Shown here one piece after another: positions 33,894 through 53,165 of a stretch of DNA of 61,248 bases. Within the stretch, counting starts at the first letter, position 1. The number at the start of each line of letters is the position of its first letter. Source of the DNA: an uncultured Gammaproteobacteria bacterium. Lineage in GTDB: Bacteria; Patescibacteriota; Microgenomatia; CAZXEC01. The stretch is taken from NCBI GenBank assembly GCA_964639595.1, contig CAZXEC010000002.1:13621-74868 (forward strand). Reading direction: 5' to 3'. The notes beneath the pieces are model-generated. The model saw nothing but the letters and a program-made list of their open reading frames with translations, ran no database searches and was not told the DNA's origin. The translations under genes were made by a program, and so were the position numbers.

Positions 33894-33898
33894 ATTTG

Positions 33899-33971: not shown

Positions 33972-33993
33972 GCATGCCTTAACTAAACTCATT

Positions 33994-35883: not shown

Positions 35884-36639
35884 CTAAACATATGCAACTT
35901 TTCTTCTTTCAAAGATACGATTCAATATTAATGCAAGTTCAAACATAATTATAATAGGTAAAGCGAGTAAGAAGTCGGTTAGGATTGAATCCGCTGGAAG
36001 GAGGATGGTAAAGAATAAGGAACCCAAATAAACCCACATACGGTACTTACTTAAGCTGCTGGGCTTGATAATTCCTAGGCGTGTAATAAGAAATAAGATT
36101 ACCGGGAATTGGAAGGCAATCCCCATCAGCACAGAAACCATCAGTACTGTGCTCATAAGGTGGCTAATATCTAGGATGTTACCTATACCAAGCGATTCAG
36201 ACTTGGTCAAAAATAATTCAATTTGCCATTTCATAATCAGAACTCCAAATGAAAATCCGCTTAAAAAAAGAATTATGGAAAATGGCAAAAACCCAACTAA
36301 CTTCTTGAATTCATTTTGTCTTAAGGCCGGTCTTAAAAAAGACAAAATTTGATAAATCAAGAGAGGAAAGGTAAACACCAGTCCGGTAGCGACGCCACAA
36401 CTAATTGCGAGATTGATGAACTGGAAGGGTGAAGTAAAGACGATATTAATTCCGCGAAGAGCAAGAATGTCAATCAGGAATTTGATTATTCTTTCATAAA
36501 AAACAAAGCCAGAAAGAGACGCAACCGCGAAAACAGATATCGTAAAGAGAATTCTTTTTCTAATCTCGGCCAAGTATGGAGAGTATTTGTTTATCAATTC
36601 ATTCAGTCCAGAAGTTTCGGAAGACTTGATATTTTCCAC
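35884..36639 (-). CDS. tatC: Twin-arginine translocase subunit TatC
   Basis: YLAEIRKR, FTSPF, 6 TM, GIAFQFP, LPADSIL, LPIIIMFEL. Confidence 0.9.
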   Translation of the reverse strand: MENIKSSETSGLNELINKYSPYLAEIRKRILFTISVFAVASLSGFVFYERIIKFLIDILALRGINIVFTSPFQFINLAISCGVATGLVFTFPLLIYQILSFLRPALRQNEFKKLVGFLPFSIILFLSGFSFGVLIMKWQIELFLTKSESLGIGNILDISHLMSTVLMVSVLMGIAFQFPVILFLITRLGIIKPSSLSKYRMWVYLGSLFFTILLPADSILTDFLLALPIIIMFELALILNRIFERRKVAYV

Positions 36640-36667
36640 AGCAGCAATATAAGAGTATGCCTAATTT

Positions 36668-36826
36668 TTACCCCTCCTTTTGCTCAGAGTCGCGAGAAGC
36701 CTTCTTAAATTCTCTAATGGCTTCACCTAAGCCTTTGAAAAGTTCCGGGATTTTCTTGCCTCCGAAAAGCAAAATTACTATTAAGGCAATGATCAGCCCT
36801 TCAGTTAACCCAATTGATTGAAACAT
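36668..36826 (-). CDS. tatA: TatA/E subunit (52 aa, absent from the ORF track)
   Basis: [43 protein letters not shown]. Confidence 0.93.
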
Positions 36827-36878
36827 ATTTTATTGCGCAAGCATCAAACTTGCTTATTTTAACACCCCCTTCCATTAG

Positions 36879-36915
36879 TCCCGACTTTACCCCGATTGGA
36901 TCGGGGTTATCGGGA
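36879..36915. mobile_element. Nested double family A palindrome
   Basis: ttag|TCCCGACT tta|CCCCGATTGGATCGGGG|tta TCGGGA|ttag. Confidence 0.85.
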
Positions 36916-37113
36916 TTAGTTTTTGCTAGGTTCGTTATCACCATCTTCCATGGCTTTGGTAAATTCCTTTTTGATTTTTTTGATCTCTTTGACAGTTTCT
37001 CCGCTGGTTTTAGCCAGCCGCCCCGCAATTGCTTTGCCGCCGAAAAGAACTATTAAAATTAAAACTATAATAATCAGCTCTGTCGGACTGATATTTTTTA
37101 TGAAATCAAACAT
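36916..37113 (-). CDS. tatA: TatA/B family subunit
   Basis: ISPTELIIIVLILIVLFGGK...GETVKEIKK. Confidence 0.85.
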   Translation of the reverse strand: MFDFIKNISPTELIIIVLILIVLFGGKAIAGRLAKTSGETVKEIKKIKKEFTKAMEDGDNEPSKN

Positions 37114-37189
37114 TTTGGTTTATATTATCACTATATAACTCAAATCATCAAAAAACAAGAGGCAAAAAGCCAAAAAGCCAAAGCTAATT

Positions 37190-40100
37190 TTAGCTCAAGG
37201 GTGCTGCCAACCAGACAGATCCATTCCAATATTCCAAATTCTTTGTTTCAGAGTTAAAACCAAACGTTCCCTTCTTGGCTTTTTTGGGTCTGCCGGCGGT
37301 GTTCCAGGAGGGGATCCTTTGATGGCTGGCCATGCCAGAGATATCTGGCCCAGTTGTAGTTGATGTAAAGAGCAAGGAATTTCTAGATATCACAGGGACT
37401 TCTTTAACCGGTGTTAACTGCGCAGCCGACCCCGATTCAATCGGGGCCGAAGGGCTTGGTGAGGCAGATACTGATGCTGAAACACTTGCTTTGGCTGATG
37501 GGGAAGGTGATGCCGAAGGTGATGCCGAAGGGCCACTTGCACCGGCCGAAGGACTGGGTGAAGCCGAAGGCGACAGTGATGGTGACAAACTTTCACTCGC
37601 CGAAGGACTGGGTGAAGCCGAAGGCGACAGTGATGGTGATGCTGAAGGGCCACTTGCACCGGCCGAAGGACTGGGTGAAGCCGAAGGCGACAGTGAAACT
37701 GATGCGCTTGGTGACACCGAAGGTGACAGTGAAATCGAGGCGGAAGGGCTTGGACTTGCGCTCGGACTCAAACTAACGGAGGCACTTGGTGACACCGACG
37801 GACTCAAACTAATAGATGCGCTCGGACTGGGTGAAGCCGAAGGAGAGGCTGATTCAGAAACTGATGGAGAAACTGATGGCGACGCGGACACCGAAACTGA
37901 TGGCGACGCGGATATAGATACCGAAGGTGATACTGACGGGGAAGCGGACACTGATATAGACGGGGAGGCTGATATTGAAACAGATGGTGACACTGAAGGA
38001 GAGGCAGAGATTGATACAGAAGGCGATGCTGATATAGAGGCTGATTCAGATACTGAAGGTGAAGCAGATATTGATGCTGATACCGAGACTGAAGGTGAAG
38101 CTGAAGGCGAAGGAGAGGCGGATGGTGAAGCAGATATTGATGCACTGGGAGAAATACTCGGAGAAGCTGACACCGAAACCGAGGGAGATGCCGAAATTGA
38201 CGCTGATTCAGACACTGAAGGAGAAGCAGAAACTGATACAGATGGTGACACTGAAGGAGAAGCAGAAACTGAAACCGATGGGGATGCCGAGATGGAGGCA
38301 GAAGGTGATACAGATGGTGAAGCTGATACCGAGACTGATGGTGAAGCACTTACCGAAGCACTAGGAGAGACGGAAGGTGAGGCTGATACCGAAACAGAAG
38401 GTGATACAGATGGTGAAGCTGACACCGAAACTGAGGGAGATGCCGAAATTGACGCTGATTCAGACACCGACGGCGATGCACTTAGCGATACCGAAGGACT
38501 TGCACTGGGAGAGACCGACGGCGATGCACTCGGAGACGGTGAGGCTGATGGTGATGCTGAAACAGAGACACTGGGAGATATCGACGGTGATGCGCTTATC
38601 GATACTGACGGTGATGCAGATACTGAAACTGAAGGTGATACTGATGGAGAGGCCGATTCAGAGACAGACGGAGAAGCGGAAACAGAAGCAGAGGGTGACA
38701 CCGAAGGAGAGGCTGATTCAGAAACTGATGGTGAAACCGAAGGAGAGGCCGATTCAGAGACGGAAGGCGATGCGGAGACAGAAGCTGACGGTGAGATAGA
38801 AGGTGACGCTGATATAGATACAGAAGGAGAAGCAGATATAGATGCCGAAGGTGAGATAGATGGCGATGCGGAGACTGAAGCCGAAGGCGATACCGAAGGC
38901 GAGGCGGAGACGGAAACTGATGGTGAGGCGGATATCGAGGCTGATTCCGAGACCGAAGGACTCGCGCTTATCGATACACTGGGAGAAACACTCGGAGACG
39001 CGCTTACGGAAACCGAGGGAGAAGCAGAAACTGATACGCTTGGTGAGACCGAAGGTGAAGCAGAAATCGAAACCGAGGGAGAGACCGACGGCGAAGCGGA
39101 GACGGAAACTGACGGAGAAGCCGAGACTGAAACTGAAGGTGAAGCAGAAATCGAAACCGAGGGTGAGGCTGATATCGAGGCAGACTCTGATACGGACGGA
39201 GAAGCCGAGATTGAAACTGAAGGTGAGACGCTTGGTGATGCACTTACACTAACCGAAGGTGAGGCGGATATCGAGGCCGATTCAGATATTGAAGGACTCG
39301 CGCTTATCGATACACTGGGAGAAACACTCGGAGACGCGCTTACGGAAACCGAAGGTGATGCGGAGACAGAGACTGATGGCGAAACCGAGGGAGAGGCGGA
39401 GATGGAAACTGAAGGGGATACCGACGGTGATGCAGAGACGGAAACCGAAGGTGAGGCGGATATCGAGGCCGATTCAGAGACAGACGGCGAAGCAGACACG
39501 GAAGCGGACGGTGATATAGATGGTGATGCTGATACCGAAACCGATGGTGAGGCTGATATAGAAGCTGAAGGAGAAACGGATGGAGAAGCCGAGACAGAAA
39601 CTGACGGTGATACTGAAGGAGAGGCTGACACAGAAACAGATGGTGAGACAGAAGGAGAAGCCGAGACAGAAACTGACGGTGATATAGACGGAGAAGCGGA
39701 TATTGATACAGACGGAGATGCTGATATTGAGGCAGATGGTGAAACCGAGGGAGAGGCTGACACAGAAACAGATGGTGAGACAGAAGGAGAGGCAGAGGCA
39801 GAGGCCACAGCAAGACCCTGCACGACCCACTTGCAAGACCCGGTTTCGGCAGCCGAGATAGTGCCCGTCACCTGCAGAGTGACTGTGGCGCCAGTTGTGA
39901 CCAGGCGATGCCCGAGATCGCCAGACATATCATTCCCAGTTGTGGAGTTGAAATGTGTCGCCGGGCTCTCAACATAGTTGCCATTCCAGGTAATAGTGGC
40001 CTCTGAATCGCTGATAGCCGTAGTGGGACGAGTCATTGTGGTCGAGTCGTCTCTGATGCCGACGAGGGCCATAACCACACTATTACTTGGGACAACAGTT

Positions 40101-40516
40101 GTAGTGTCATCCGAGGTTGTCGTTGAAGAGGTGCCCCATGACAATCCCACCGTGGCATCTACCGGCGTTCCCCAGGTATCTCCACCCGCCTTCGTCCAGA
40201 GCATGACAACGGCATGGCCTTCCGTCGGCGCGGCAGACCAGTCAACGGACGGGTCGCTGTCGCCCGACTGCCAGTCGCGATACCACGCCATGACCTTGAC
40301 GGAACCGGTGCCATTGCCAGCGGCCGTCGTACCATCGGCGAATTCCGTGCCGATGGGCGTCCAGCCGCTCGGGTTTGCAACCGTAATCGAGTATGTCTTC
40401 CATGACACAAACAGGAACATGCGGTCGCCGGCTGCCGGAGTGCCGGGGATGGTAACGCTGCTGGGGTCAGTGACTATGCGAGCCCAAGTTCCTGCTGTTT
40501 TTAATGAAATTGCCAT
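37190..40516 (-). CDS. Serine/proline-rich repeat surface-protein-like polypeptide (1108 aa)
   Basis: ~235-aa beta-rich N-terminal domain; ~800 aa of SPSVS(V/I/P/E)SA repeats; short W-rich C-terminal domain; AAGGAGG RBS. Confidence 0.9.
37430..37446. mobile_element. 17-bp palindrome, family A, in CDS
   Basis: ccga|CCCCGATTCAATCGGGG|ccga; peptide SA-PIESG-SA. Confidence 0.9.
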
Positions 40517-40862
40517 ATTAGGCTGCCCCCTCCTTCCTGAGATGAGAATCCGTGGTGTGAGATTTGGAAAATCCTACTGCCAAGTTTAAATCGGTAGAGT
40601 GGGCAAGAACGCCCTTAACCTTCTTCAAAGAGTCAGTTGAATAGTCTATGGAAAAATCTATATCAGCGACAGAAGCGTTGTCGCTCTTTTTGGCTACACA
40701 GCAGTATCTTTTTGTGGGCATTGTATTGCAGCACATACTAGCCGTAATGAATTATGGACACATAGTTATCTTACCTTAACTGAAAATCTTGCTCAAATCA
40801 ACTTTGGTTTGTTGGATTGGCCGCCCGATAATGGTGGTTAAAAAAGAGAGCGTCAAGAAGGT

Positions 40863-41597
40863 TTAATTAAATTTCTCTACCCAGACTTTTGTTTTTCCCC
40901 ATCCCGGGATTTCGTCATCTGATTCAACCCATCCTTTAGTGTCCTCTTGGTTTCTAAATTCTTCTTTTTTCCATCTGTTAGGCGAGAAATTGCTATCGTA
41001 TCGTATCTCTATGTTTGGAAAATCGGATTTCCACCCAACGGATACCGAATCGTCGACTCTTTCGCGTCTGTGATGAGTTCCAGGCTCATAACCCATCCCG
41101 CTGCTAAATCCGTTTTTTTCTACCATCGCAACTCTCTTTTGGTAATGTTTAATTGCAGTTTTTCGCCAGACCGCTATTCCGCTTACCTGTCTGCAGTCAT
41201 AGTGAAGTGCGTGTCCCGACCTGGCATCCAACTTCCAAACATTTTCGTTATAGTACCAGACTTTCTTTTTAGGAGGGGTAAAATCGAAATGTGAGGGGTG
41301 ATAAAGAACATTTGCCTCGCAGAAGTAAACAATATCGGCGTCACTATTCTCAAGCGCTGCTAAAATTCGCTTGAACGTCGAGAGTGCTCCTTCTTTGATT
41401 GGCACTTGGACATTTTTGCCAAAATCCATGGGTTTATATGAGGCGCTCACTATTGGAAGACCAATTTTTGCCAGCTGTCTTTGTACTCTAACACCGATTT
41501 TGAGTTTTAATTGGTTGTCTGTATAGTAAACAATGCCTTTCATAAGTCTCGCCTTGGTAGATTTTTCCTTGACTGGTTCGCTTTTTGCGGTTCTCAT
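40863..41597 (-). CDS. GT-A fold glycosyltransferase-like protein
   Basis: Paralogous to the C-half of 41820-43607 (YTDNQLKLKI, KPMDFGKN, LYHPSHFDF). Confidence 0.75.
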   Translation of the reverse strand: MRTAKSEPVKEKSTKARLMKGIVYYTDNQLKLKIGVRVQRQLAKIGLPIVSASYKPMDFGKNVQVPIKEGALSTFKRILAALENSDADIVYFCEANVLYHPSHFDFTPPKKKVWYYNENVWKLDARSGHALHYDCRQVSGIAVWRKTAIKHYQKRVAMVEKNGFSSGMGYEPGTHHRRERVDDSVSVGWKSDFPNIEIRYDSNFSPNRWKKEEFRNQEDTKGWVESDDEIPGWGKTKVWVEKFN

Positions 41598-41624
41598 ACT
41601 TGCTATTCTATCATAAAATTCAAA

Positions 41625-41815
41625 TTTGTCCCCCTTCGCGGAAAACCGCGAGCGTAAGCTTGCGAATGAACGCTAAGAATTTTCCGCTTCGGAGGGATTT
41701 CTCTCCCGACGAAGCGTGGGGAGAAGATACCCCGACCGTGAGGTCGGAGGAGATTCATCTATTGCCTAGTTCCCAAGAGGCCACACCGCTTGCAAGGTCT
41801 CTCCTCTAAAGAGCT
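41625..41815. mobile_element. Structured IS200/IS605-like remnant
   Basis: TTTTCCGCTT shared with 59523; hairpin CCCCGACC-GTGA-GGTCGGAG followed by GAGATTCA. Confidence 0.4.
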
Positions 41816-41819
41816 TCCC

Positions 41820-43607
41820 TTACAGCCCCCCAATTAAGTTTTTTGTTTTTCCCCAATCGGGAATTTCGTCATCTGTTTCAATCCAGTTTATTAGGAGGTT
41901 TTGATTTCTAAATTGATCCTTTCGCCATCTTTGACCGGTAGAATTTTTTTCGTGGCGGATATCTATATTCGGATGTTCAGACTTCCATGTTCCCAGCTTA
42001 AATATATTTTTCCATTTGATTCTCCCATGAGTCATTGGCTCAAAGCCCATTTTTGTGCTATAGCCATCCTTTTCAACCAATTCGCACCTTTCTCTAAAAT
42101 GTGTAAGTAGGGCGTCGCGGCACCCGCAAAGTCCTGACAGCTGATTAACATCATAATGGAGGGCGTGGCCGTCAGTTGATCTCAAAAACCAGACATTTTG
42201 GTTGTAATAGAAAGTATTTTTATCAGGCGGCACAAAGTCAAAGTGTGATGGGTGATATAAAACATCATGTTCACAGAAGAAGATAATGTCAGCATCGCTT
42301 GCCTCAAGCCCGGCCAGTATTTGTTTAAACATGGTCAAATAACCTCTTTTTAGGGGCAGGTAAATATTTTTACCAAAATCCATGGGTTTGAGTGAAACTG
42401 AAACAACTGGAACATTTTTTCTCTTACTTGTTTTTCTAAGCTGATTTTGAACTTTGTGGGCAATTTTTAACTTGAGTTGGTTGTCGGTATAAAAGAGAAT
42501 TCCTTTTGTCCCGATTAAATCGGGATTTGTCGGCCCGTTCCCGGGGGGTTGAACAGATGTGCCGCTTTGGTAAATGATACCACTTTTCGGCAGTTCACCC
42601 GCCGCGGCGGGTTCATCCTCCAAAGGTTCACTTTCCGCGGGTTTGGTATCTGAACTCCAGTCTCTAAACTTAAATTTGTTTGCTTTCAGCCTCATTAAGT
42701 CTTCTTGACTCCAGCCCTTAACCGGCCAAAATTTCTCTACCAGCCAGCCGAGGGGGTGGATTTGTTTATCCCATTTGTTATTAAAAAAAAGATCTCGGGC
42801 AAAGTCTTTGGCTTTTTTCTGATCACTGACGGAGATGGGGTAGGGGAAACCAAAATCTCCACCCTGGGTTCTAAACATATGGGCATACCAGGTTTTTTTA
42901 TTTACCATTACGCGGCCTCCTGATAGCCAAGTTTTTACAGCAACTTCAATTCCTTGAGAACCCCAACTGCCAAAGTTCTCGTCACAGACCCCGAGCTCCC
43001 AGTATTTCTGCCTAGTCATCATCCAACATGAGCCCTGGAGAGACATGGTTTCGGTGACGTCTCCCTTACCCTCGGGGCGCTTGGCGTATTCACCGAAATA
43101 TTGGAAGTGGGGAGTTGAATCAAAACAGTATGAAACACTGTTGGGACTTGATTTGGCATGCCATAAAATGTCTCTTACTGTTTCTTTTCCACACTCCTGG
43201 CATGGCCCGCTTGGTCCCTGATACCTCCTGTGTCCATCCGGACAAACCCAATCGAATGCATGCAGATTTTTCATTAGGGGGGCCATTGTCCAATCATCAT
43301 GCATCTCTTTCATCATTTTTATATCAAACCCTTTATCAAATGCACAATGTGCATCACATTTCATAATATATTTGGCATTGGAAATCTTTGCCGCTTCATT
43401 GGTTGCTGCCCGCTGCCCGATACTTTCGTTATGGTAGACAACAGTTACCCGTTCATGTTGAGGAATTGAAGGTTCTGCCCAAGCCCCATCTAAAACGGTA
43501 ATTACCTCTGTGTTTCCCTCGATGTTTTTCAAAATATCATCAACCGTCTGTTTCAAAAACATTTCATTGCGAGCCGGAATGAGTATACTCAAATCATATG
43601 TAGTCAT
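41820..43607 (-). CDS. Two-domain glycosyltransferase (GT2-like plus a second GT-A-like domain)
   Basis: SILIPARNE, KCDAHC, WGSQGIE; second domain CEHDVLY. Confidence 0.88.
   Translation of the reverse strand: MTTYDLSILIPARNEMFLKQTVDDILKNIEGNTEVITVLDGAWAEPSIPQHERVTVVYHNESIGQRAATNEAAKISNAKYIMKCDAHCAFDKGFDIKMMKEMHDDWTMAPLMKNLHAFDWVCPDGHRRYQGPSGPCQECGKETVRDILWHAKSSPNSVSYCFDSTPHFQYFGEYAKRPEGKGDVTETMSLQGSCWMMTRQKYWELGVCDENFGSWGSQGIEVAVKTWLSGGRVMVNKKTWYAHMFRTQGGDFGFPYPISVSDQKKAKDFARDLFFNNKWDKQIHPLGWLVEKFWPVKGWSQEDLMRLKANKFKFRDWSSDTKPAESEPLEDEPAAAGELPKSGIIYQSGTSVQPPGNGPTNPDLIGTKGILFYTDNQLKLKIAHKVQNQLRKTSKRKNVPVVSVSLKPMDFGKNIYLPLKRGYLTMFKQILAGLEASDADIIFFCEHDVLYHPSHFDFVPPDKNTFYYNQNVWFLRSTDGHALHYDVNQLSGLCGCRDALLTHFRERCELVEKDGYSTKMGFEPMTHGRIKWKNIFKLGTWKSEHPNIDIRHEKNSTGQRWRKDQFRNQNLLINWIETDDEIPDWGKTKNLIGGL
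42509..42525. mobile_element. 17-bp palindrome, family A, in CDS
   Basis: tttg|TCCCGATTAAATCGGGA|tttg; peptide T-NPDLIG-T. Confidence 0.9.
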
Positions 43608-44509
43608 AGCATTGTTTTTATACCTTCTTCAAAACTAACTTTGGGTTTCCAACCCAGAAGTTTTTTGGCTTTAGCATTTGATGCCAATGTAGTTCTTGGC
43701 TCAACAACTGCTGGGCCGTGAATTGGTTTAATGTTTTTCCCCAAGAGCTTATTAAGTGACCTGACAACTTTATTTACGGATATATTTTCCCCATACCCGA
43801 TGTTAAATATTTCCCCTGAAAGGCGTGACTCGGCGGCTAATAAGTTGGCTTCAACGATATCTGAAACAAAAGTAAAGTCACGGGATTGTTTACCGTCCCC
43901 ATTAATGACTGGGGTTTTATCTTGGGAGATTAGTTTAATAAATTTGGGAAGCAGCAAGGCATAGGGGCTGTTGGGATTCATTCCCGGTCCATAGACACTG
44001 AAATATCTTAAGATAATTGTTTCCAATCCCCAAAGTTTAGAGAACATCTGGCAATACCCTTCAGCTGTAACTTTTTGTAGGGAATAGGGGACCAAGGGAT
44101 CAGGTTTCATGCTCTCGCAAAAGGGAGTTTTATTTTTATTGCCATAGACAGATGAGCTTGAAGAGAAAATAAACTTTTTGATTTTATGTTTTTTTGCAGC
44201 GAGGAGAAGATTTAGAGTACCATCAACATTCACTCTATGCGTTTGCCAGGGATCATCGAGTGATCTTTTGAGGCGGGGGAGAGCAGCCAAGTGAAATATT
44301 ATATCCTTTCCTTTTACGAGATTGCCTACGTCGTCGAGAATTGAACCCTCGTGTTTTATCAGATTCGGATGTTTCGGCAAATTTTCCCACCTGCCTTCGG
44401 AAAGGTCATCGATAACAGTCACCCGGCTTCCTTCTTTGAGAAGTCTCTCGGTAAGGTGAGAACCAATAAACCCCGCACCACCTGTTACAACCACGTTTTT
44501 TATTTTCAT
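43604..44509 (-). CDS. NAD-dependent epimerase/dehydratase
   Basis: VTGGAGFIGSHL, SSSSVYG, YSLQK, LRYFSVYGP, RDFTFV. Confidence 0.94.
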   Translation of the reverse strand: MKIKNVVVTGGAGFIGSHLTERLLKEGSRVTVIDDLSEGRWENLPKHPNLIKHEGSILDDVGNLVKGKDIIFHLAALPRLKRSLDDPWQTHRVNVDGTLNLLLAAKKHKIKKFIFSSSSSVYGNKNKTPFCESMKPDPLVPYSLQKVTAEGYCQMFSKLWGLETIILRYFSVYGPGMNPNSPYALLLPKFIKLISQDKTPVINGDGKQSRDFTFVSDIVEANLLAAESRLSGEIFNIGYGENISVNKVVRSLNKLLGKNIKPIHGPAVVEPRTTLASNAKAKKLLGWKPKVSFEEGIKTML

Positions 44510-44510
44510 A

Positions 44511-45056
44511 TCATTGTATTTTTCTGCAAATCCTCGTGCCGCGTCCCGAATAACGAAATTCATCGAAGGTGTAAATTTCCTCCGATGGATACTTAAAGTG
44601 TTCCATTCCGAACCCCAGATAGTTGTCTATAACCAGCCAACCGTTTAATTTGATTTTGGGTACGGCTTCATTTGCCAACAACAGTCTACGCGCGTGTTTA
44701 GGGTAGGAATCAACCAAAACTACATCATAATAGTTATCGGGTTCTTTTTTTATTGCATCCAGAATTCCTGTTTCATTGGCAAGATTAATTTCTACATTTT
44801 TGTATCCTTTTGTTCTTCTTACAACCTTCTCAAACCACTTAGGGTCCGTTTCAAAAGATTTAACATTTTTACATCTTTCTGCCCAAAAAACGGTGGACCC
44901 GCCGCTGCCAAACTCCAGTACTTTATAATCTTTGTTGACAATACTTTCAAGGGCGATGATTGATCCAAAGGAAAGCCAGGGATAGCCTACTTCAAGCGCT
45001 CCCTTTCCTTTGACAAAGGCTTCGCGACTTGGAATAGTAGTAACTATAGTTTTCAT
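44511..45056 (-). CDS. SAM-dependent methyltransferase-like protein
   Basis: VLEFGSGGST, YDVVLVD, GWLVIDN. Confidence 0.8.
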   Translation of the reverse strand: MKTIVTTIPSREAFVKGKGALEVGYPWLSFGSIIALESIVNKDYKVLEFGSGGSTVFWAERCKNVKSFETDPKWFEKVVRRTKGYKNVEINLANETGILDAIKKEPDNYYDVVLVDSYPKHARRLLLANEAVPKIKLNGWLVIDNYLGFGMEHFKYPSEEIYTFDEFRYSGRGTRICRKIQ

Positions 45057-45727
45057 GCCTTGTGCAAAATTGAAACTACCATATCGTCAGTTTCATAATC
45101 TAATTCCTTTTTCTTAACAGTGTTAAATCCTTGAAAGTGGTCAGAAAGTAAAAATCTTTCATTTTGATTCCATATAACACAATCTTTGCCCCCACTCTTA
45201 TCAATGTTCCACATATGCAAGCCCGAATATTTCTCGTTTTCTCCTACATTAACAAAATGACGAAGGTAAATATAGCCTCCGGGTTTTACTATCCGGTACA
45301 TCTCGCAAATTGCTTTTAGTGGATTGGTTGTATGGTCCAGAGCATTACAGCAGTGTACTATGTCGAAAAAGTTGTCTGGATAGGTTAAGTTTTCCATATC
45401 TTGTTTCTCAACTGGTATCAGCGGTGTAACGTTATTATCTTCTAGTATTTTATTGAATTTATCGGCTAAGGCGTCTGACGGATAAACTTTGACTTTGGCC
45501 GTCTTCCACAAGGAGCCTATTGTGCAAAACATACCCGAACCTATTTCGGCTATTGTGACTTCTTTTTTGTCACCTATCATCTGGCCAAAATAATCGGGCA
45601 AAGTTAGTTCACGGTTAAATTGCTTCGCTTTCCACGGTAATTTTGCCCTATAAAAACGAAGAGTGTTGTTCGTACCTTGTGCCCATTTAGCCTTTAGTAA
45701 ATCGTTCAGGTTTGTATCCATAACCAA
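45053..45727 (-). CDS. Class I SAM-dependent methyltransferase
   Basis: IAEIGSG, FFDIVHCCNALDH, RIVKPGG. Confidence 0.85.
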   Translation of the reverse strand: MVMDTNLNDLLKAKWAQGTNNTLRFYRAKLPWKAKQFNRELTLPDYFGQMIGDKKEVTIAEIGSGMFCTIGSLWKTAKVKVYPSDALADKFNKILEDNNVTPLIPVEKQDMENLTYPDNFFDIVHCCNALDHTTNPLKAICEMYRIVKPGGYIYLRHFVNVGENEKYSGLHMWNIDKSGGKDCVIWNQNERFLLSDHFQGFNTVKKKELDYETDDMVVSILHKA

Positions 45728-46290
45728 AAAGTATACTTGTCTATAGGCTCTATTTTCAATAATCTAAACCCTATCTTTTTATATACCATCCCGATTGCTT
45801 CTTGACTATATTCAACACCACTCCACCAGCGATTCATGTCTTTTTGTTTGTCCGACCGTAGTAGGACCTTGAATATCCCTTTTTGTTTAAGAACCCTGCA
45901 GATCTCTTTATAGGAAAAAACCAAATCGACAGATGCATCTAGCAGTTGAACTCTTTTTCCGTCGGTTTCCAGGAATTCAACATTTTCCAATTCTTTAAGT
46001 CTTTGCCTTCCTGCAGCAATCATTGCCGCAGATATATCCACCCCGATTACTTTTTTAAAATCGCGAGCCATAAATTCGGTAAGTCTGCCTATCCCGCAGC
46101 CATAATCCAAAATAGTTTGTTTACCCCATATTAGCTTGTCGTTCGCAATATGCCGCTTATAGGTACTTTCGCTGCTTTCTCTGAACTCTTGTTCCGTAAT
46201 TCCACGTCCCTTATCTGAGTTTATGTAGTATCTGGGGTTCTCTTTAGCCAGCTTCTCCCAAAGTGTTTTTTGGTTAATCATACTTTTCAT
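45706..46290 (-). CDS. Class I SAM-dependent methyltransferase
   Basis: ILDYGCGIGRL, VIGVDIS, RVLKQKG. Confidence 0.87.
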   Translation of the reverse strand: MKSMINQKTLWEKLAKENPRYYINSDKGRGITEQEFRESSESTYKRHIANDKLIWGKQTILDYGCGIGRLTEFMARDFKKVIGVDISAAMIAAGRQRLKELENVEFLETDGKRVQLLDASVDLVFSYKEICRVLKQKGIFKVLLRSDKQKDMNRWWSGVEYSQEAIGMVYKKIGFRLLKIEPIDKYTFWLWIQT

Positions 46291-46805
46291 TCGAACTCCT
46301 TTAAATCATGGAAATTACTAACAACACTAGTGTTCGGATTTAATTTAGTATAATCATAGCGATACTTGAATAAACCCCATATTTTTTCGTAGCCGTATTG
46401 CTTTACCCACGAAAGATTGCTATCATGGATAACAATATATTCTGCCCAATTTGCTAATCTTTTAATCTCAATCCATCTTCTTTCATCCGGGGAGTGATCG
46501 ACGAGTGCCATTCCCCAATGTCTTTCAATTTTTGCTTCACTCCAATCACCACTAATCTTAATTAGCTTATGAAACGGAACCGGTTTTTCGACTGCTTTTT
46601 GATGCCAATAATTGCTTGATTCATAAGAATAAAGAGTTCTTCTTGCCATCTGACAAAGCCACCTTAAAAGTGTAGTAGAAAAATAACCTGTTCCTAATTC
46701 AAGCACATCTCCGCGAGATGCTTCAAAAGTTTTAACTAGCATTGGTATATGGGTTGCCTGTTTTACTCTGTTATCTACTAATTGACTCATGTTTTTATCC
46801 ACCAA
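46287..46805 (-). CDS. Methyltransferase-like protein
   Basis: VLELGTGYFST, ALVDH, VIHDS. Confidence 0.72.
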   Translation of the reverse strand: MVDKNMSQLVDNRVKQATHIPMLVKTFEASRGDVLELGTGYFSTTLLRWLCQMARRTLYSYESSNYWHQKAVEKPVPFHKLIKISGDWSEAKIERHWGMALVDHSPDERRWIEIKRLANWAEYIVIHDSNLSWVKQYGYEKIWGLFKYRYDYTKLNPNTSVVSNFHDLKEFE

Positions 46806-47338
46806 TATGTTGGCTGTTCCCGACTCCCCCTATCCATAACCTTATCCGAATACGGATCTGTTAGATTAAACTTAATTTCGTGGGCTTTGGTGTAGGCATC
46901 AACGGCTTCAATTACCCCTGCTTTTCTGAAATGATAATAATCGTCTCCGGAAACAATGCCCCCGGCTCTGACTCTTTTGGACCACTCGATCAAATCCTGC
47001 ATTACATAATCAAAAGAGTGATTTGCATCAATATATACAAAGTCCAATGAATCGTTTTTAAATCTTTTAACTGCATCCATGCTCATTTCCCGGATGATGG
47101 TTGCATTGTATTTGGCCAATCTTTTGGAAGCAACCTCGACATGGTGAACATTCCGTTCCACGCTTCCTGACCAGATATTTCCTCTATACGGCTTCCAAAT
47201 ATCAATGCAATAAAGTTTTAAGTTTGGAATTGCCCGAAACAGTGCTTCTGAAAAATAACCTTCTGCAACCCCAATTTCGGCACCTTTGGTAAATCCCAAC
47301 TCCCCAAAATATTTAATTAAATCATATTTACTTTTCAT
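46787..47338 (-). CDS. Methyltransf_24-like methyltransferase
   Basis: GAEIGVAEG, LDFVYIDANH, VRAGGIVSGDDY. Confidence 0.87.
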   Translation of the reverse strand: MKSKYDLIKYFGELGFTKGAEIGVAEGYFSEALFRAIPNLKLYCIDIWKPYRGNIWSGSVERNVHHVEVASKRLAKYNATIIREMSMDAVKRFKNDSLDFVYIDANHSFDYVMQDLIEWSKRVRAGGIVSGDDYYHFRKAGVIEAVDAYTKAHEIKFNLTDPYSDKVMDRGSREQPTYWWIKT

Positions 47339-48080
47339 ACAACTTTAAAATATCTTCCGCCCTGCCCCAATAGGGAATTTCAATTGCTCTGATATCCCCG
47401 AGTCTCTTGCGGGTTCCGCGGCTTAAGTATCCAAAAGCCTCGGGGTGGCTAAATACAATGTTTGTTTCGGTGGTGTAAAACTCCTCAGTTTCCCGGACCG
47501 TTACGCCCAGGTGATTTTCATACCTTCCCGGGTCTCCCCAGTAGTGAATCGGAACTTTTTCGTCTGGCACTCCTTTAAATTTATTAAATCGTTCCTCTAG
47601 GGCCTCTACCAGCATATCCCTTTTGGCTATCAGGCTATTTACCACCTTTCTTTTGTTCCTAAACGAGAATATGGGAGGCTTTATCCAGCTAAATATCGAC
47701 CATTTAGCCATATTGTAGGCAAACCTGTCTTTTTCGGGAAGAAAGTAATGAAAATGCTCGTGGGAATATAAAATGTCATCCTCGGCCATGGCTACATACT
47801 TGGTTTTGGCGGCTTTGGCTCCTATTAGGATCTGCCTGTAGACATTTAAATGGGATCTGCCGATTTCTCCCACGCAAATGTTGGTGCCAAAGACTATTGG
47901 CTTTTGCGAAACGCTAATAAGTGGCAAGTCTCCGATGGCCGTTAGAAGCTGTTTTTTGGTATTCTCCAAAAAGTAGGGATTATGTGTATCAAGATAGTTA
48001 GCTGTATAGTAGACAACTGTTAAGTCATTTTTGGTTATTTTGGCCATAATTCCTCCTCCAGTTTGCTGGCCGCGCCCCAA
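47328..48080 (-). CDS. GT-A-like glycosyltransferase
   Basis: VVYYTAN, LISVSQKP, AEDDILY. Confidence 0.72.
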   Translation of the reverse strand: MGRGQQTGGGIMAKITKNDLTVVYYTANYLDTHNPYFLENTKKQLLTAIGDLPLISVSQKPIVFGTNICVGEIGRSHLNVYRQILIGAKAAKTKYVAMAEDDILYSHEHFHYFLPEKDRFAYNMAKWSIFSWIKPPIFSFRNKRKVVNSLIAKRDMLVEALEERFNKFKGVPDEKVPIHYWGDPGRYENHLGVTVRETEEFYTTETNIVFSHPEAFGYLSRGTRKRLGDIRAIEIPYWGRAEDILKLYEK

Positions 48081-48688
48081 TATGGCAATTCTTCCGTTTC
48101 CCCGCCTTCTGTTCCGGTAAACCAGCGCATTCCGTTCCTGGTTTTTATATTAATAACCGCTAGATCATTCTTAAAAGGTGTCCAACCCTGGTATTTATGG
48201 AAAAGCGGGTGAGGCTTACGGGTGCTCCATTGGGGAAGTTTTCCGAGAACTCTATACAAACGTGATAATAAATATTCTCGGTTTGAGAATAGAGCACATA
48301 AAGAAAAGGCCTTCTTTCTGAAAATGTTCGATCCCTCGTATAATACCCATACATTCGTGTAGTGATAAGCCGCATTCTCATCTGGAGGATTATAATCGAA
48401 ATACCCCGTTGGGGGATATAAGCAGTCAGCTTCTGCGGTACAAACAAATTTTGTCGTTGCCTTTAGGCATCCGGTTTGAAGCTGGCGGTATATATTATGG
48501 TCTGATATACCCACGTCCCCGACGCAGATATTTGTACCAAAATCGATTGGTTTTTGGGAAACAGAAATAAGGGGAGTATCCCCAATAGTTTTAAGGAGTT
48601 TGTCTTTGATCTTATTCTCAAAGTCTCCTTCTTCTCTATTTGAGGTGTAGTATATTACGGTAATGTCTTTTGCCTTTATGGTGCCCAT
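48035..48688 (-). CDS. GT-A-like glycosyltransferase
   Basis: VIYYTSN, LISVSQKP, AEADCLY. Confidence 0.7.
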   Translation of the reverse strand: MGTIKAKDITVIYYTSNREEGDFENKIKDKLLKTIGDTPLISVSQKPIDFGTNICVGDVGISDHNIYRQLQTGCLKATTKFVCTAEADCLYPPTGYFDYNPPDENAAYHYTNVWVLYEGSNIFRKKAFSLCALFSNREYLLSRLYRVLGKLPQWSTRKPHPLFHKYQGWTPFKNDLAVINIKTRNGMRWFTGTEGGETEELPYWGAASKLEEELWPK

Positions 48689-49542
48689 AGGCTTCTATCC
48701 TCCGGCCAGTCTGGAACCGGCCAGAACTTTTCAATGAGCCAGGAAAAGGGAAGTGTCTGTTTATGCCAGGCGGTGTTAGTTAGCCACCTGTTCGTATAAG
48801 CGGTTCCTTTTTCAAGTTGTTTACCGTCTAAGGTGTATCCTCTTCCCATCTGTTTATTTTTATGAAGATGAGCATACCAGGTTTTTTTATTAGTTACCAC
48901 GCGCCCCCCCGACAACCAGCATTTAAGCCCTATCTCCTGAAACTCGTGGTTAAAAGTCCCATAATTTTCTTCATCCTCGAGTTCCAGCTCATGGAAGTAA
49001 TCTTTATGCATAAACCAGCATGAACCCTGCGCAGACATATTGTCATCAACTAAAATTTTTGCCCGATCGCGTGCCCTGTCGTCCCAGACCCTGCCGTGCA
49101 ACCCGCTTTCCCAGTTGCCATTTTTGCCCGGATAGGACAAATATTCATAATCAACATCGGGTTTGCCTACATCCTGTATGCGCCAGTTTGATGCGTCGAG
49201 TCTTTTGCGGCGGGGGACTACTACCCAATCGGGTTTGCAGTCGGAAGTGAGCTTCAAATCGAATCCCTCGTCAAATAGACAATGGGCATCGCTCTTCAAA
49301 ATATATTTGCCTTTGGCTATGGCAACTCCGGAATTAATTGCGTTACGCATACCCCCCGGCCGACCCCGGTGAAGATAGATCACTTTTGGGTCGCTAATTG
49401 GGGTGTCTACCCAATATCCGTCTAAGACTGCGATAATTTCAATATCTCCTCTTGCCTTGAGCATTATATCGTCAATGGTTTTTTGAAGAAATTCCTCGTT
49501 TCGAGAGGGAATGATTACAGATACAGTAGGTGCAATCTTCAT
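48676..49542 (-). CDS. GT2 glycosyltransferase
   Basis: SVIIPSRNE, KSDAHC, QGSCW; paralogous to the N-half of 41820-43607. Confidence 0.88.
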   Translation of the reverse strand: MKIAPTVSVIIPSRNEEFLQKTIDDIMLKARGDIEIIAVLDGYWVDTPISDPKVIYLHRGRPGGMRNAINSGVAIAKGKYILKSDAHCLFDEGFDLKLTSDCKPDWVVVPRRKRLDASNWRIQDVGKPDVDYEYLSYPGKNGNWESGLHGRVWDDRARDRAKILVDDNMSAQGSCWFMHKDYFHELELEDEENYGTFNHEFQEIGLKCWLSGGRVVTNKKTWYAHLHKNKQMGRGYTLDGKQLEKGTAYTNRWLTNTAWHKQTLPFSWLIEKFWPVPDWPEDRSLWAP

Positions 49543-49679
49543 GATCGTAGTTTTACACCTTAGCCGTAAAAAATCAAGATACGGCGTCATTGACAAGAGA
49601 CATGTTTAACTTTATGTTGTTTAATAAGGTATGTTTTGGCGGACGCTGCCGACTAACTATTTTACAAGCTAAGAGTTGA

Positions 49680-49696
49680 TCCCGATTAAATCGGGA
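49680..49696. mobile_element. 17-bp palindrome, family A
   Basis: ttga|TCCCGATTAAATCGGGA|ttga. Confidence 0.9.
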
Positions 49697-49731
49697 TTGA
49701 TAGAAAGAGGTAGATCTGGTTTAATATTGTT

Positions 49732-50733
49732 ATGGGTATTTTCCGCAAAATATTGTTATCCGGGATATTCTGGTATAGCCTGTTTTCCGCAGTTTTGATA
49801 GGCGCTGCCTTTTATTTGGTTTTGGGTCCGCCAGCTGGCGGAGGGATTGAAGCTACAGTTACCCAGCAACTGTTGGACCGCAAACGCATCATTGCCAGGG
49901 CTGAAGTGGCTAACATCACCACCTTCTTTGAAAAATTTGGTAATTCAGTCGCATTTCTAGCACAGCTAAGAAGTATAGAAGCCCGTGATGTGGATACTAC
50001 TTATGATTTGGATACGTTTGTAGAGCAACGGCGCGAGGCTGGCCTTATTGGAGGAGTTGTCTTAACAGATAAAAATGGAGTAGTCCGGTTTAATTCTAAT
50101 GTGATGGGAACCAGGGATCTGGGAGCGTCTTTAGCTGACCGGGCCTATTTTGTCTGGGCTAAGAATCAGGGGGAGAGGGGTAAGTATTTCATCAGTCAGC
50201 CGGTTATGAGCCGGCTGGGAGCCACTAAAGGACAAACTATAGTGGTGGTGGCTTCTCCGGTATATCAAAATAATAAATTTAGCGGTGTGGTAGCCTCCTC
50301 GGTGAAACTGGAGCCCTTAGCAGAGCGTTTTTTGGGGTTAATGAAAATATCAGCTATGACAGAAGTTTATCTGGTTGATGGCAATGGAGACCTGCTATAT
50401 AGTAACTCTGCCTCGGATGCGGTTGGCCCCGATTCAATCGGGGTTGGATCAAATATTTCCGAACTCTTTTCAGGCGATTCAGCTTTAAGCGATAAGATTA
50501 AAAATGCGCTGGGCGCAACTGTGGGAGACCAATTCCGAACCGAGAAGCACCTGATAGCTTATTCCCCGGTCATGTTGGGAACTCAAAGCTGGTTGTTGAT
50601 CATCTCCTCTCCCATGCAGCAGGTAGTCAATCTCGCTATGCCTCTCTATATTCGGCAAGCAGCGATACTCATACTGACAGCAACCACTATTTTAGTATTA
50701 GGAGTAATAGCTAGCAGAAAAAATCAGGCTTAA
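49732..50733 (+). CDS. Cache-domain membrane sensor with no cytoplasmic output domain
   Basis: TM; DRAYF, YFISQP, IVVVASPVY, GVV, YLVDGNG; TM; ends 6 aa later. Confidence 0.85.
   Translation: MGIFRKILLSGIFWYSLFSAVLIGAAFYLVLGPPAGGGIEATVTQQLLDRKRIIARAEVANITTFFEKFGNSVAFLAQLRSIEARDVDTTYDLDTFVEQRREAGLIGGVVLTDKNGVVRFNSNVMGTRDLGASLADRAYFVWAKNQGERGKYFISQPVMSRLGATKGQTIVVVASPVYQNNKFSGVVASSVKLEPLAERFLGLMKISAMTEVYLVDGNGDLLYSNSASDAVGPDSIGVGSNISELFSGDSALSDKIKNALGATVGDQFRTEKHLIAYSPVMLGTQSWLLIISSPMQQVVNLAMPLYIRQAAILILTATTILVLGVIASRKNQA
50427..50443. mobile_element. 17-bp palindrome, family A, in CDS
   Basis: ttgg|CCCCGATTCAATCGGGG|ttgg; peptide VG-PDSIG-VG. Confidence 0.9.
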
Positions 50734-51353
50734 GGGAAAACCTGGTGGAAGTAATCATAGTCGAGATTTTGGCGTTTTTTCCAAGTTTCAGGAAAGTTTG
50801 ATCTACCCCTGACGTAACGGAAGGATCCATTGTTTGTGTCTCCTTTCATAATAAACCAGGCGCCTTCTTTATTGATAAATCCGTAATAAGCGATTATGTC
50901 GTCATCCACTTCAGATATATGATATCCGTCTGTGGTTGAAGCTGTGGCAGCGCTAGTTTTGTCCGCTGAAGGATTTCCGGTTAAAGCTCCTGTTTGTGCA
51001 AGGTTTTGGCGGCCAAAAAGCCAAGACTCGACATTGCGACCGAAAATCGATATCAGGAAGAATGAAATTCCGCTGGCCCCTATCAGCTTTAAGAAGGTCC
51101 GTTTGTCAATATCAGCAATCCCCCTGCTGTCTGTTTGGGTCTCTATTTTCTCAGCCACACTCTGAATAGGGATTGTAGTTGTCTGGCTTACCTGCTTTTT
51201 GCCCAGAAAGATCTGATATGCGAAAAAGGCCAGTAGGGGATAGAGTAAAACAGCTACGCCTAGCTGGGTGTAGGTGGTGGAGGTGATAAATACCACTGCC
51301 AGCAGCACGAAGGCAATCATAAAGCTGGGATATATCAGTAAAGTTCTATTCAT
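50730..51353 (-). CDS. Membrane protein with 2 TM and an internal Tat-like signal anchor (DKRTFLK)
   Basis: Two N-terminal hydrophobic helices, polar loop, KRTFLK followed by LIGASGISFFLISIFG. Confidence 0.7.
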   Translation of the reverse strand: MNRTLLIYPSFMIAFVLLAVVFITSTTYTQLGVAVLLYPLLAFFAYQIFLGKKQVSQTTTIPIQSVAEKIETQTDSRGIADIDKRTFLKLIGASGISFFLISIFGRNVESWLFGRQNLAQTGALTGNPSADKTSAATASTTDGYHISEVDDDIIAYYGFINKEGAWFIMKGDTNNGSFRYVRGRSNFPETWKKRQNLDYDYFHQVFP

Positions 51354-52487: not shown

Positions 52488-52877
52488 ATGTCTAATTTTA
52501 GTTTCGGAAAATTAGAGGTTTATCAGAAAGCAGTACTATTCACTAATAGAGTCTACTCTATTTCTAAAACCTGGCCTCGAGAGTATTTATTTGATCTTAC
52601 TAACCAGATAAGGAGAGCTTCACTTTCAATCTCACTCAATATAGCAGAAGGAACCAGTAGAAGTAGTAAGGATTTCAGTGGGTTTATTGATATGGCTCGT
52701 GGATCTTGTTTAGAGTGCGTAGCACTCATCGAAATAGCCTCAAAACAGAATCTTGTATCGGAAAATACAAAGAATATTTTAATTCAAGAGTTAATTTCGC
52801 TATCAAAGATGCTCAGTGGCCTCAAAAGAACTCTTACTACGAACCACGAACTACCAGCGAAGCGTACTACCAACTAA
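52488..52877 (+). CDS. Four-helix-bundle protein (23S rRNA IVP-like family)
   Basis: FGKLEVYQKA, LTNQIRRASLSISLNIAEG, ARGSCLE. Confidence 0.92.
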   Translation: MSNFSFGKLEVYQKAVLFTNRVYSISKTWPREYLFDLTNQIRRASLSISLNIAEGTSRSSKDFSGFIDMARGSCLECVALIEIASKQNLVSENTKNILIQELISLSKMLSGLKRTLTTNHELPAKRTTN

Positions 52878-52879
52878 AA

Positions 52880-53161: not shown

Positions 53162-53165
53162 GAAT

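Follow-up and report, generated by a model that had tools for sequence, protein, structure and literature searches.

The stretch of DNA analyzed here (hereafter the window; 61,248 nucleotides of contig CAZXEC010000002.1, in all 61 kb) carries a gene cluster in which a twin-arginine translocation (Tat) system, a giant serine-rich repeat protein, soluble enzymes of sugar transfer and methylation, and a membrane protein with a Tat-type motif are encoded side by side in a bacterium of the Candidate Phyla Radiation (CPR). As a whole, the cluster was read as encoding a phage-like surface fiber that would receive its sugars in the cytoplasm, with a dedicated Tat system and a Tat-targeted anchor protein exporting it or fixing it to the cell; judged from gene content, gene order and predicted structures, the chances for and against this reading are evenly balanced. 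Its parts were graded separately. It is very likely that the locus is one functional unit, and likely, from the company that the enzymes keep, that the Ser-Pro-Ser (SPS) repeats are the substrate of glycosylation; that the anchor protein is itself a Tat substrate is somewhat favored by its motif, and passage of the fiber through Tat as a hitch-hiker is doubtful. Comparison across loci shows that the link to Tat is no peculiarity of this one genome. Loci that combine glycosylation with dedicated export of a Ser-rich repeat surface protein are a known kind of system. The combination of sugar-coating enzymes, SPS fiber and Tat in CPR is undescribed in the literature searched, and no description was found there of SPS-repeat proteins, of this enzyme family or of Tat coupling in CPR.

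Gene content and order

Co-oriented minus-strand genes extend from 35884 to 52260 and are broken by a single plus-strand gene (49732-50733). In coordinate order they are tatC, tatA, tatA, an 1108-aa repeat protein (the fiber protein), 11 soluble enzymes and a 207-aa membrane protein (p207), and all were located where an earlier reading of the sequence alone (the sequence-only reading) had placed them. The features are as follows; GT2 denotes glycosyltransferase family 2, SAM S-adenosylmethionine, and ORF an open reading frame.

35884-36639, minus strand: tatC, 251 aa, multi-pass membrane protein (Pfam TatC, E 1e-39)
36668-36826, minus strand: tatA copy 1, 52 aa (Pfam TatA_B_E, E 9e-17)
36916-37113, minus strand: tatA copy 2, 65 aa (Pfam TatA_B_E, E 7e-8)
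37190-40516, minus strand: serine-rich repeat (fiber) protein, 1108 aa
37190-37396, minus strand: fiber C-terminal region with phage-fiber-type motif (PHROG 1325, E 6e-6)
37397-39802, minus strand: degenerate SPSxS(V/I/E)SA repeats, ~800 aa, proposed O-glycosylation substrate and flexible shaft
39803-40516, minus strand: fiber N-terminal domain (residues 1-238), all-beta, phage minor-tail-like, compositionally foreign
40518-40736, minus strand: 72-aa ORF, no assigned family (no Pfam or PHROG match)
40863-41597, minus strand: unclassified conserved enzyme-like domain, stand-alone (no Pfam or PDB match)
41820-43607, minus strand: GT2 fused to a C-terminal unclassified domain, 595 aa (Pfam GT2 in the N-terminal half, E 2.5e-13)
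43604-44563, minus strand: NAD-dependent sugar epimerase/dehydratase (Pfam Epimerase, E 1e-57)
44511-45056, minus strand: class-I SAM methyltransferase (Pfam Methyltransf_24)
45053-45727, minus strand: class-I SAM methyltransferase (Pfam Methyltransf_11)
45706-46290, minus strand: class-I SAM methyltransferase (Pfam Methyltransf_25)
46287-46805, minus strand: methyltransferase-like ORF, 172 aa (no Pfam match; weak SAM-binding motif match to its neighbor, E 0.01)
46787-47338, minus strand: class-I SAM methyltransferase (Pfam Methyltransf_24)
47328-48080 and 48035-48688, minus strand: unclassified domain, two further stand-alone copies of 250 aa and 217 aa (family alignment)
48676-49596, minus strand: GT2 glycosyltransferase, 306 aa, first of the enzyme block (Pfam GT2, E 1e-12)
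49732-50733, plus strand: dCache sensor-domain membrane protein without an output domain (Pfam dCache_1, E 9e-19)
50730-51353, minus strand: p207, 207-aa membrane protein, candidate Tat substrate and fiber anchor, with the internal Tat-type motif DIDKRTFLKLIG
51346-52260, minus strand: protein with two MerR-type helix-turn-helix domains and an SH3_3 domain (MerR-SH3; Pfam), conserved directly upstream of p207

The tatA-tatA-tatC triplet claimed by the sequence-only reading was borne out by the Pfam matches, and with a TatC receptor and TatA-family subunits the locus encodes the components of a minimal TatA/TatC translocase. A simple Kyte-Doolittle scan gave 7 hydrophobic windows in TatC and a single N-terminal hydrophobic helix in the 52-aa TatA; the second tatA copy could act as TatB. 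The order tatA2-tatA1-tatC is conserved in relatives.

Elsewhere the window reads as ordinary bacterial chromosome, with genes for ArgRS, Adk, MreB, L1, a sortase and six tRNAs. The nearest relatives of the locus lie in metagenome-assembled genomes (MAGs) named Woesebacteria, Daviesbacteria and other CPR groups, from which the locus, read as chromosomal, is taken to belong to a CPR bacterium (Microgenomatia).

Linkage of Tat genes to the cluster across loci

Three sets of loci were compared (individual loci are given by L numbers). Genome loci came from a scan of one genome per species, which gave 86 enzyme-family relatives, mostly in CPR MAGs, and 80 loci were kept. On the viral side 82 loci (IMG/VR) were examined for homologues, and 80 entered the profile and repeat counts. 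The tatC-centered loci came from a metagenome scan using four window-type TatC sequences (an alignment of both TatC subfamilies was too diverse for a pattern scan); these were counted only with at least 700 bp of upstream sequence (n = 54), and called long with at least 5 kb upstream (n = 13).

Profile searches detected TatA in 19 of the 80 genome loci and in none of the 80 viral ones (Fisher P = 1e-6), and TatC in 10/80 and 0/80, respectively. MerR-SH3 followed the same pattern (13/80 vs. 0/80), as did p207 (17/80 genome loci vs. one weak match to its C-terminal domain among the viral 80) and a strict Tat motif (18/80 vs. 0/80). The Tat genes were co-oriented with the cluster with one exception (L123). 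Two TatC subfamilies and two arrangements were found among the genome loci: Tat lies downstream of the fiber gene in the window, L119, L152 and L191, and upstream of the enzymes in, for example, L129, L149, L150, L157, L163, L166, L171, L173 and L179.

Window-type TatC has at least 343 relatives, those in metagenomes at 60-79% identity. In all 54 tatC-centered loci a fiber-type C-terminal motif (C-motif) was encoded directly upstream of tatA-tatA-tatC, and an SPS-repeat ORF was seen in 44/54, including 13/13 of the long loci. The usual order in these relatives is the fiber, a separate ~67-aa C-motif protein, tatA, tatA and tatC, and window-type enzyme genes were present upstream of the fiber in 6 of the 13 long loci. 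The sequence-only reading would have been refuted by a lack of synteny between tatAC and the cluster in other genomes; this did not hold, the Tat coupling recurring on both the genome and the tatC-centered sides. That reading had also named a finding that would speak against it, namely a cluster occurring mainly in phages or in other contexts without Tat; the module is indeed common in viral contigs and never accompanied by Tat there, but a Tat-linked cellular version recurs in CPR loci.

A complete Tat system was reported in only one Saccharibacteria genome among those analyzed (PMC6031116), in agreement with the statement of the sequence-only reading that Tat is rare in CPR. At L119:11410-13005 and L166:7-744 the cluster is flanked by tatA paralogues in tandem, four or five of them, an unusually high number for a minimal Tat system.

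In L209, L233 and L236 the fiber is preceded by other, mostly uncharacterized ORFs, which form co-oriented runs of ~200-240 aa each (L209:198-4978, L233:138-4337, L236:264-5184). Ten such ORFs from L209 and L233 were searched against Pfam, with no match except one GT92/GT2_4 in L209. These runs may be an alternative modification module.

Proteins with Tat-type motifs

The 50730-51353 product had been proposed as the partner on which the repeat protein leaves through Tat, and several features of p207 agree with such a role. Two N-terminal helices (residues 3-24 and 28-50) are followed by a disordered linker, the motif (81-92), a third helix extending to 112, and basic residues; in the AlphaFold2 (AF2) model residues 140-207 form a compact beta domain (pLDDT >90). 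The motif, D-I-D-K-R-x-F-L-K-L-I-G, is almost invariant and runs into the third helix. It is the sole Tat-like motif in the window; compared with the standard (S/T)RRxFLK it is internal and has KR in place of RR (DKRTFLK followed by a hydrophobic helix), and the fiber has no such motif. There are 426 homologues of p207, and the motif was found in 88 of the 120 examined (87 with KR, one with RR); RR occurs in the p207 of three loci of the genome set (L124, L176 and L197). A fold search against the PDB gave nothing significant for p207, and no cofactor motif was found in its C-terminal domain.

Gene order points the same way. Besides the 17 syntenic genome loci, a search started from p207 gave three long contigs, all of which (3/3) carry MerR-SH3 and p207, in 2/3 an opposite-strand dCache gene, and then GT2 and/or methyltransferase genes. 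In these loci p207 stands at the head of the enzyme cluster throughout. MerR-SH3 was found in L278-L280 as well as in the 13 genome loci. The dCache protein, which has a transmembrane segment at each end, occupies the same position in L124, L142, L279 and L280.

Loci of a second type have, in place of p207, an ORF of 76-92 aa that lies between tatA and the enzymes and carries a canonical twin-arginine signal, RRKFLKILLIGG (RRKFLK). This RR protein was found in nine loci (L120, L127, L129, L149, L150, L157, L167, L171 and L173; e.g., L149:4249-4494), from records named Saccharibacteria, Zambryskiibacteriota, Yanofskybacteria, Parcubacteria and 'uncultured bacterium'. The order there is tatC, tatA, the RR protein, a ~205-aa CxxC protein (in four loci) and the enzyme cluster. 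Only a short conserved tail of ~45 aa ('FRVxEDxKxLSVYDxSGEEIFQIDK') would be exported. Such a tail has no evident need of transport in a folded state unless it carries a partner, which is the main argument for co-transport of the fiber. The fiber ends also pair with the anchors: p207 with IPSWN...GFN ends, and the RR protein with ELKTIN...SIKTVNG ends. Together with synteny, this pairing speaks indirectly for a complex of anchor and fiber.

The strongest competitor of co-transport, which we nevertheless regard as unlikely, is that Tat serves the anchor alone (p207 or the RR protein), and that the fiber surfaces by another route or by lysis and then docks; the Tat linkage would then reflect a shared structure and not shared transport. 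It would account for a Tat-type motif confined to the anchor proteins and missing from the fiber, and it suits the architecture of p207, which resembles that of polytopic proteins jointly inserted by Sec and Tat. It sits poorly with three observations: no alternative exporter is encoded in the loci examined, the ~45-aa tail of the RR proteins gives no obvious reason for Tat, and in the window-type arrangement tatA-tatA-tatC adjoins the fiber gene and not the anchor gene.

Polytopic proteins of this kind exist, the actinobacterial Rieske protein being one. p207 shares with them N-terminal helices without a Tat motif, an internal (K/R)R-x-FLK before the last helix, and a folded domain after it, features that are present in its sequence and AF2 model, with the topology following by prediction. 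It differs in that its C-terminal domain is small, lacks a cofactor motif or fold match, and follows a motif in which KR replaces RR in 87/88.

Fiber protein

The description of the repeat protein in the sequence-only reading held up closely. The 1108-aa protein contains 75 SPSxS units between residues 243 and 1019, so that repeats take up ~800 aa, of which Ser makes up 49% and Pro 16%. Hydrophobicity and motif scans of the full length found no hydrophobic segment (no window of 1.6 or above) and no RR or KR pair, in line with the stated lack of a signal peptide or twin-arginine motif; [LIV]Px[TSA]G (LPxTG-type anchor) is likewise absent throughout. The DNA repeats are degenerate (62-94% matches; periods 18, 24, 36 and 96), and the region is therefore not assembly stutter. 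An 881-aa acidic ORF on the plus strand (37332-39977) was rejected as a gene: it is a shadow ORF that arises from repeat composition and risks being mis-called. On the minus strand, homologues exist for both the N-terminal and the C-terminal part of the ORF.

Both ends of the fiber are related, in fold or sequence, to virion tail proteins. The N-terminal domain (N-domain) has 82 homologues, mostly stand-alone phage proteins of ~255 aa that sit in structural modules with terminase, portal and prohead protease genes, and 30 of the homologues are in IMG/VR contigs (up to 72% identity). Its AF2 model is a confident all-beta structure (pLDDT 96) that matches many phage proteins in BFVD, among them several mycobacteriophage minor tail proteins (E 3e-10, TM up to 0.77). 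A PDB fold search gave nothing significant for it, and no relatives were found in deposited phage genomes.

The composition of the N-domain is foreign to the locus. Its GC content at third codon positions (GC3) is 0.63, compared with 0.29-0.49 in 21 other genes or gene segments checked and 0.34 in the adjacent repeats, and the phage contigs carrying N-domain homologues have a GC content of 0.53-0.71 with one exception (0.42). From these two observations, the N-domain was probably acquired recently, as a tip, from a high-GC phage lineage. Fiber tips common to cell loci and phage SPS proteins were found for only 7/45, one of these from a Tat/p207 locus. Across loci the fibers have no signal peptide, hypervariable N-domains and conserved C-motifs.

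The C-motif, SWNTAGRP...GFN...LEYWNG, had been said to recall phage fibers, and the PHROG 1325 match and matches to minor tail proteins of Streptomyces and Synechococcus phages agree with this. It is a module of ~40 residues (313 representative clusters in a full-library search). Proteins with T7-tail-fiber, Mtd_N or BppL_N domains carry as many as 15 copies of it in tandem, and many proteins of 48-105 aa have a single one. In relatives of the window locus the fiber ends in '...IPSW...W-LKLPMKK' and the separate ~67-aa gene, before tatA, in '...IASW...W-LAAxMS'. The end of the window fiber is a hybrid, with a fiber-like start (IPSW) and a small-protein-like end (LAAPLS); the small gene is absent, and 76 bp separate the fiber gene from tatA (37113). 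It looks like the small motif gene was lost by a deletion through recombination between the two motif copies. The ~67-aa motif protein was considered as a carrier of a Tat signal and rejected, its N-terminus having no conserved basic pair.

Enzyme module

Of the activities assigned to the cluster by the sequence-only reading, the epimerase is secure. Four of the five methyltransferase-like genes were confirmed by Pfam, and the fifth (46287-46805) shows only the weak motif match. Two of the six supposed glycosyltransferase domains are GT2 by Pfam; the other four (40863-41597, the C-terminal half of 41820-43607, 47328-48080 and 48035-48688) align as one conserved family, and the GT-A label given to them found no Pfam or PDB profile match. 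This family, of which there are at least 287 homologues, had no match in Pfam, and a PDB profile search gave nothing usable. A hhalign match between it and a GT2 alignment was rejected as an artefact of a GT2 tail in fused sequences. What still points to the GT-A label is the fusion to GT2 in the 595-aa protein and a conserved E-x-D motif.

No transmembrane segment was found in any of the 11 enzymes. Among the cluster genes, Pfam gave no match to a lipid-carrier (priming phospho)transferase, a flippase or a polymerase, and GtfA/GtfB-type priming glycosyltransferases were likewise not found, the sole Pfam glycosyltransferase matches in the cluster being to GT2 (PF00535).

These negatives bear on the possibility that the enzymes build a methylated envelope polysaccharide or modify some other target, with the SPS repeats as bare flexible linkers and the adjacency of fiber and Tat incidental or regulatory. 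Polysaccharide loci typically contain GT2, epimerase and methyltransferase genes, the window has Wzy_C, GT4 and WecG genes at other places, and the literature on CPR viruses treats such glycosyltransferases as surface modifiers (PMC11310336, PMC12647753). Against this stand the soluble nature of the enzymes, the lack of the three Pfam functions above, the tight co-occurrence of module and SPS proteins in phages (63/80 within 3 kb) and in cells, and the position of the phage module among head and fiber genes; we consider the polysaccharide explanation very unlikely. The window holds envelope-glycan genes apart from the cluster, and so the organism has other glycan pathways besides it.

Phage counterpart of the module

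The enzymes have close counterparts in viral contigs. Homologues of the 595-aa GT2 fusion were found in 82/82 viral-side loci, over the full length and at up to 60% identity (73% in CPR MAGs); homologues of the 306-aa GT2 in 81/82 viral-side and 78/80 genome loci; and homologues of the 250-aa and 217-aa unclassified copies in 82/82 and 77/82 viral-side loci, respectively. The unclassified family as a whole has 223 relatives in viral contigs (IMG/VR), and methyltransferase homologues occur in many of the 82 loci. TatA, TatC, dCache and MerR-SH3 were found in none of these 82 loci, nor was a full p207 homologue, and in 2.9 million IMG/VR contigs no relatives of window-type TatC or p207 were found apart from the weak C-domain match in L091. 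A search of 50,697 deposited phage genomes for the enzyme family found no relatives.

Large SPSxS-repeat ORFs accompany the enzyme module in 65/80 viral and 49/80 genome loci, at a distance of 3 kb or less in 63/80 and 41/80. On these counts, the enzymes and the SPS repeats belong together. The flanks of the viral loci hold major head proteins, with homologues in 23/80 viral, 2/80 genome and 0 Tat/p207 loci, from which the module-bearing viral contigs are judged to be genuine phages with the module among virion genes. Since the cytoplasm is where virions assemble, the natural reading is that SPS-repeat virion proteins are glycosylated there, and the phage module very probably decorates virion proteins in that compartment.

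Two further phage proteins touch on this system. The L091 match (1461-2072; an IMG/VR phage with the enzyme module) is a soluble protein without membrane helices or Tat motif, whose last 70 residues match the p207 C-domain (E 3e-9); this domain may be a fiber adaptor in phages too. A small SPS-repeat family with the N-terminus 'MATFELKSQLPKxxQxEIDRI' occurs in many viral loci, and in L116 the gene of such a protein (5263-6081) comes directly after the major head gene (4079-5215). This phage protein is probably a glycosylated head decoration.

The sequence-only reading had offered, as its alternative, a glycosylation module captured from a phage. In favor of it, the module and SPS proteins are common in viral contigs without Tat, and the N-domain and C-motif of the fiber are of phage tail type. 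A recent capture of the whole module is disfavored, since the window enzymes are 61-86% identical to MAG copies and 43-68% identical to phage copies; the exception is the methyltransferase of 181 aa, for which MAGs gave just one match, a short segment at 36% identity. It looks as if only the fiber N-domain was recently acquired.

A prophage in the window was rejected: homology between the window and phages ends sharply at 37193 and 49605 across all phage loci, with terminase, portal, capsid and tail genes not found in the 61-kb window, so that the fiber gene stands in no virion gene module there. Least likely of all, and highly so, is that 37190-49605 is a domesticated or decaying phage remnant, with the fiber a leftover, decoy or phage-used part and Tat a mere neighbor. 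In its favor, all window-phage homology falls exactly within 37193-49605, both the N-domain and the C-motif are of phage type, an IS200-type transposase and a group of tRNA genes are nearby, and the small motif gene was apparently lost by recombination. Against it, searches of the window and of the Tat/p207 loci found no genes for virion proteins, packaging or lysis, the enzymes are nearer to CPR chromosomal than to phage copies, and the ORFs are intact in many lineages with cellular partners (p207, MerR-SH3, Tat) that are never in viral contigs.

Proposed mechanism

The 11 soluble enzymes would decorate the ~800-residue Ser/Pro repeats with (methylated) sugars in the cytoplasm, a step suggested by the same enzyme module travelling with SPS proteins in phages, whose virions are assembled in that compartment. 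The bulky, signal-less product would be unfit for Sec and would be served by its own TatA-TatA-TatC translocase, to which it is linked by gene order and, presumably, by function. p207, with two Sec-type helices, would use KR-x-FLK and the third helix to place its small folded domain outside the cell; the architecture is that of the sequence and model, the targeting is predicted. There p207 would anchor the C-motif of the fiber, either carrying the fiber through Tat as a hitch-hiker or letting it dock outside. The variable N-domain would form the distal tip, which by its composition would have been swapped in recently, its likely source being a high-GC phage lineage.

Several points weigh against cytoplasmic glycosylation followed by export or anchoring through Tat. 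Glycosylation, export and contact between p207 and the fiber are each deduced from genes, and four 'GT-A-like' domains carry no verified fold. The fiber has no Tat signal, the motif of p207 is weaker than canonical in nearly all members (KR and not RR), and we know of no precedent for an extended, glycosylated protein of 1100 to >3000 aa leaving through Tat as a hitch-hiker. The 54/54 linkage comes from close TatC relatives (60-79%) and is thus partly inherited gene order, and in 7 of the 13 long tatC loci no enzyme gene of the window kind was present in the upstream stretch available. The co-variation of anchor and fiber end is confounded by phylogeny, with about three loci per type. Finally, the small stand-alone motif protein, retained in most relatives, is missing from the window.

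Comparison with known systems

The nearest functional analogy is with serine-rich repeat protein (SRRP) adhesins of Firmicutes (Fap1, GspB, PsrP), which combine Ser-rich repeats, cytoplasmic glycosyltransferases and the accessory Sec system. The likeness lies in a long Ser-rich protein encoded beside cytoplasmic glycosyltransferases and a dedicated exporter, with glycosylation preceding export. Convergence with SRRP systems, proposed by the sequence-only reading, did not survive beyond this analogy: of five defining SRRP/accessory-Sec features tested, the long Ser-rich repeat region was found (49% Ser, 75 SPSxS units) and four were not. There is no extended N-terminal signal peptide in the fiber and no LPxTG; for SecA2, SecY2 and Asp, the scanned ORFs of the window gave no Sec-family Pfam match, and no other ORF there has the size of SecA; and GT2 with the unclassified family replace GtfA/GtfB. 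SRRP repeats are moreover of a dipeptide type, unlike SPSxS, and the window locus adds methyltransferases, phage-fiber-like ends and a Tat exporter.

Signal-less proteins are known to leave through Tat bound to a twin-arginine partner, as in hydrogenase small and large subunits and DmsAB. Those hitch-hikers are compact cofactor enzymes, whereas the cargo proposed here would be an extended glycoprotein of 100 to >300 kDa. Virion glycosylation also has precedents: phage GT2s glycosylate mycobacteriophage capsids and tails, and the chlorovirus PBCV-1 has capsid glycans with methylated sugars and viral glycosyltransferase and methyltransferase activities. The phage module resembles these in placing glycosyltransferases and methyltransferases among structural genes; it differs in having no sequence relative in the deposited phage genomes and in that its substrate would be long SPSxS repeats. 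No Tat-linked cellular counterpart is known for other virion-glycosylation systems.

For a Tat-dependent surface filament, a single comparison was found in the literature searched, the haloarchaeal tafi of Haloarcula hispanica, which has an anchoring subunit and which its authors present as the first link between Tat and a prokaryotic filament (PMC11821415). Its major subunit TafA is reported to be itself transported by Tat, and the filament to consist of several small subunits, with assembly described as donor-strand exchange (PMC11821415). Both systems couple a surface filament and an anchor to Tat, in the window locus putatively so. The window locus differs in having one giant signal-less repeat protein, a separate anchor with the Tat motif, a glycosylation cluster and a bacterial (CPR) host genome.

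The papers on CPR viruses report glycosyltransferases as common and treat them as genes for modification of the host surface, with SPS repeats and Tat not mentioned (PMC11310336, PMC12647753). The position of the module in phage contigs suggests that many CPR-viral glycosyltransferases are virion-modification genes rather than modifiers of the host surface.

Host attachment and the surface cover of CPR bacteria are largely unknown, and the locus offers a concrete and widespread candidate for both (426 p207, at least 287 enzyme and at least 343 TatC relatives). If the fiber leaves through Tat, the cargo range of Tat would extend to giant, glycosylated, signal-less proteins, and Tat-based export would stand beside accessory Sec, the Gram-positive answer to the same problem, as a second solution reached independently. 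To judge from the shared module, virion fibers of phages and cell fibers of their hosts are served by a single glycosylation toolkit, a point of relevance in CPR to phage adsorption, to immunity-like masking and to gene flow. A bolder extension, quite unlikely in its entirety, is that CPR episymbionts display glycan-shielded fibers built from phage parts, piggy-backed through Tat on the anchor and retargeted by swapping phage tips, the tip here coming from a high-GC (possibly actinobacterial) phage of a potential host. If so, the symbiont would have obtained, with a tip from viruses that infect a potential host, a key already cut for the surface of that host.

Other features of the window

The 72-aa ORF between the fiber and the enzymes (40518-40736) had no tblastn match in any related locus. 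An Rfam scan of the window returned tRNAs only, and promoter and terminator scans were at background level.

Past tatC, at a distance of ~2-6 kb, the segment 29379-33992 holds a ParB-like gene, a Y1 transposase of IS200 type (30725-31396) and a four-tRNA cluster (32589-33971); because it overlaps two of these tRNAs, the ORF at 33282-33992 is probably spurious. Other envelope-glycan genes of the window are at 27382-29274, where a Wzy_C O-antigen-ligase-like domain is fused to a polysaccharide deacetylase, and at 10039-12236 (GT4 and WecG/TagA). Beside the MerR-SH3/p207 end, 52488-53594 encodes a 23S-rRNA-intervening-sequence protein and a PIN-domain protein, and the same neighborhood is conserved in a Daviesbacteria-like contig (L280:7784-8953).

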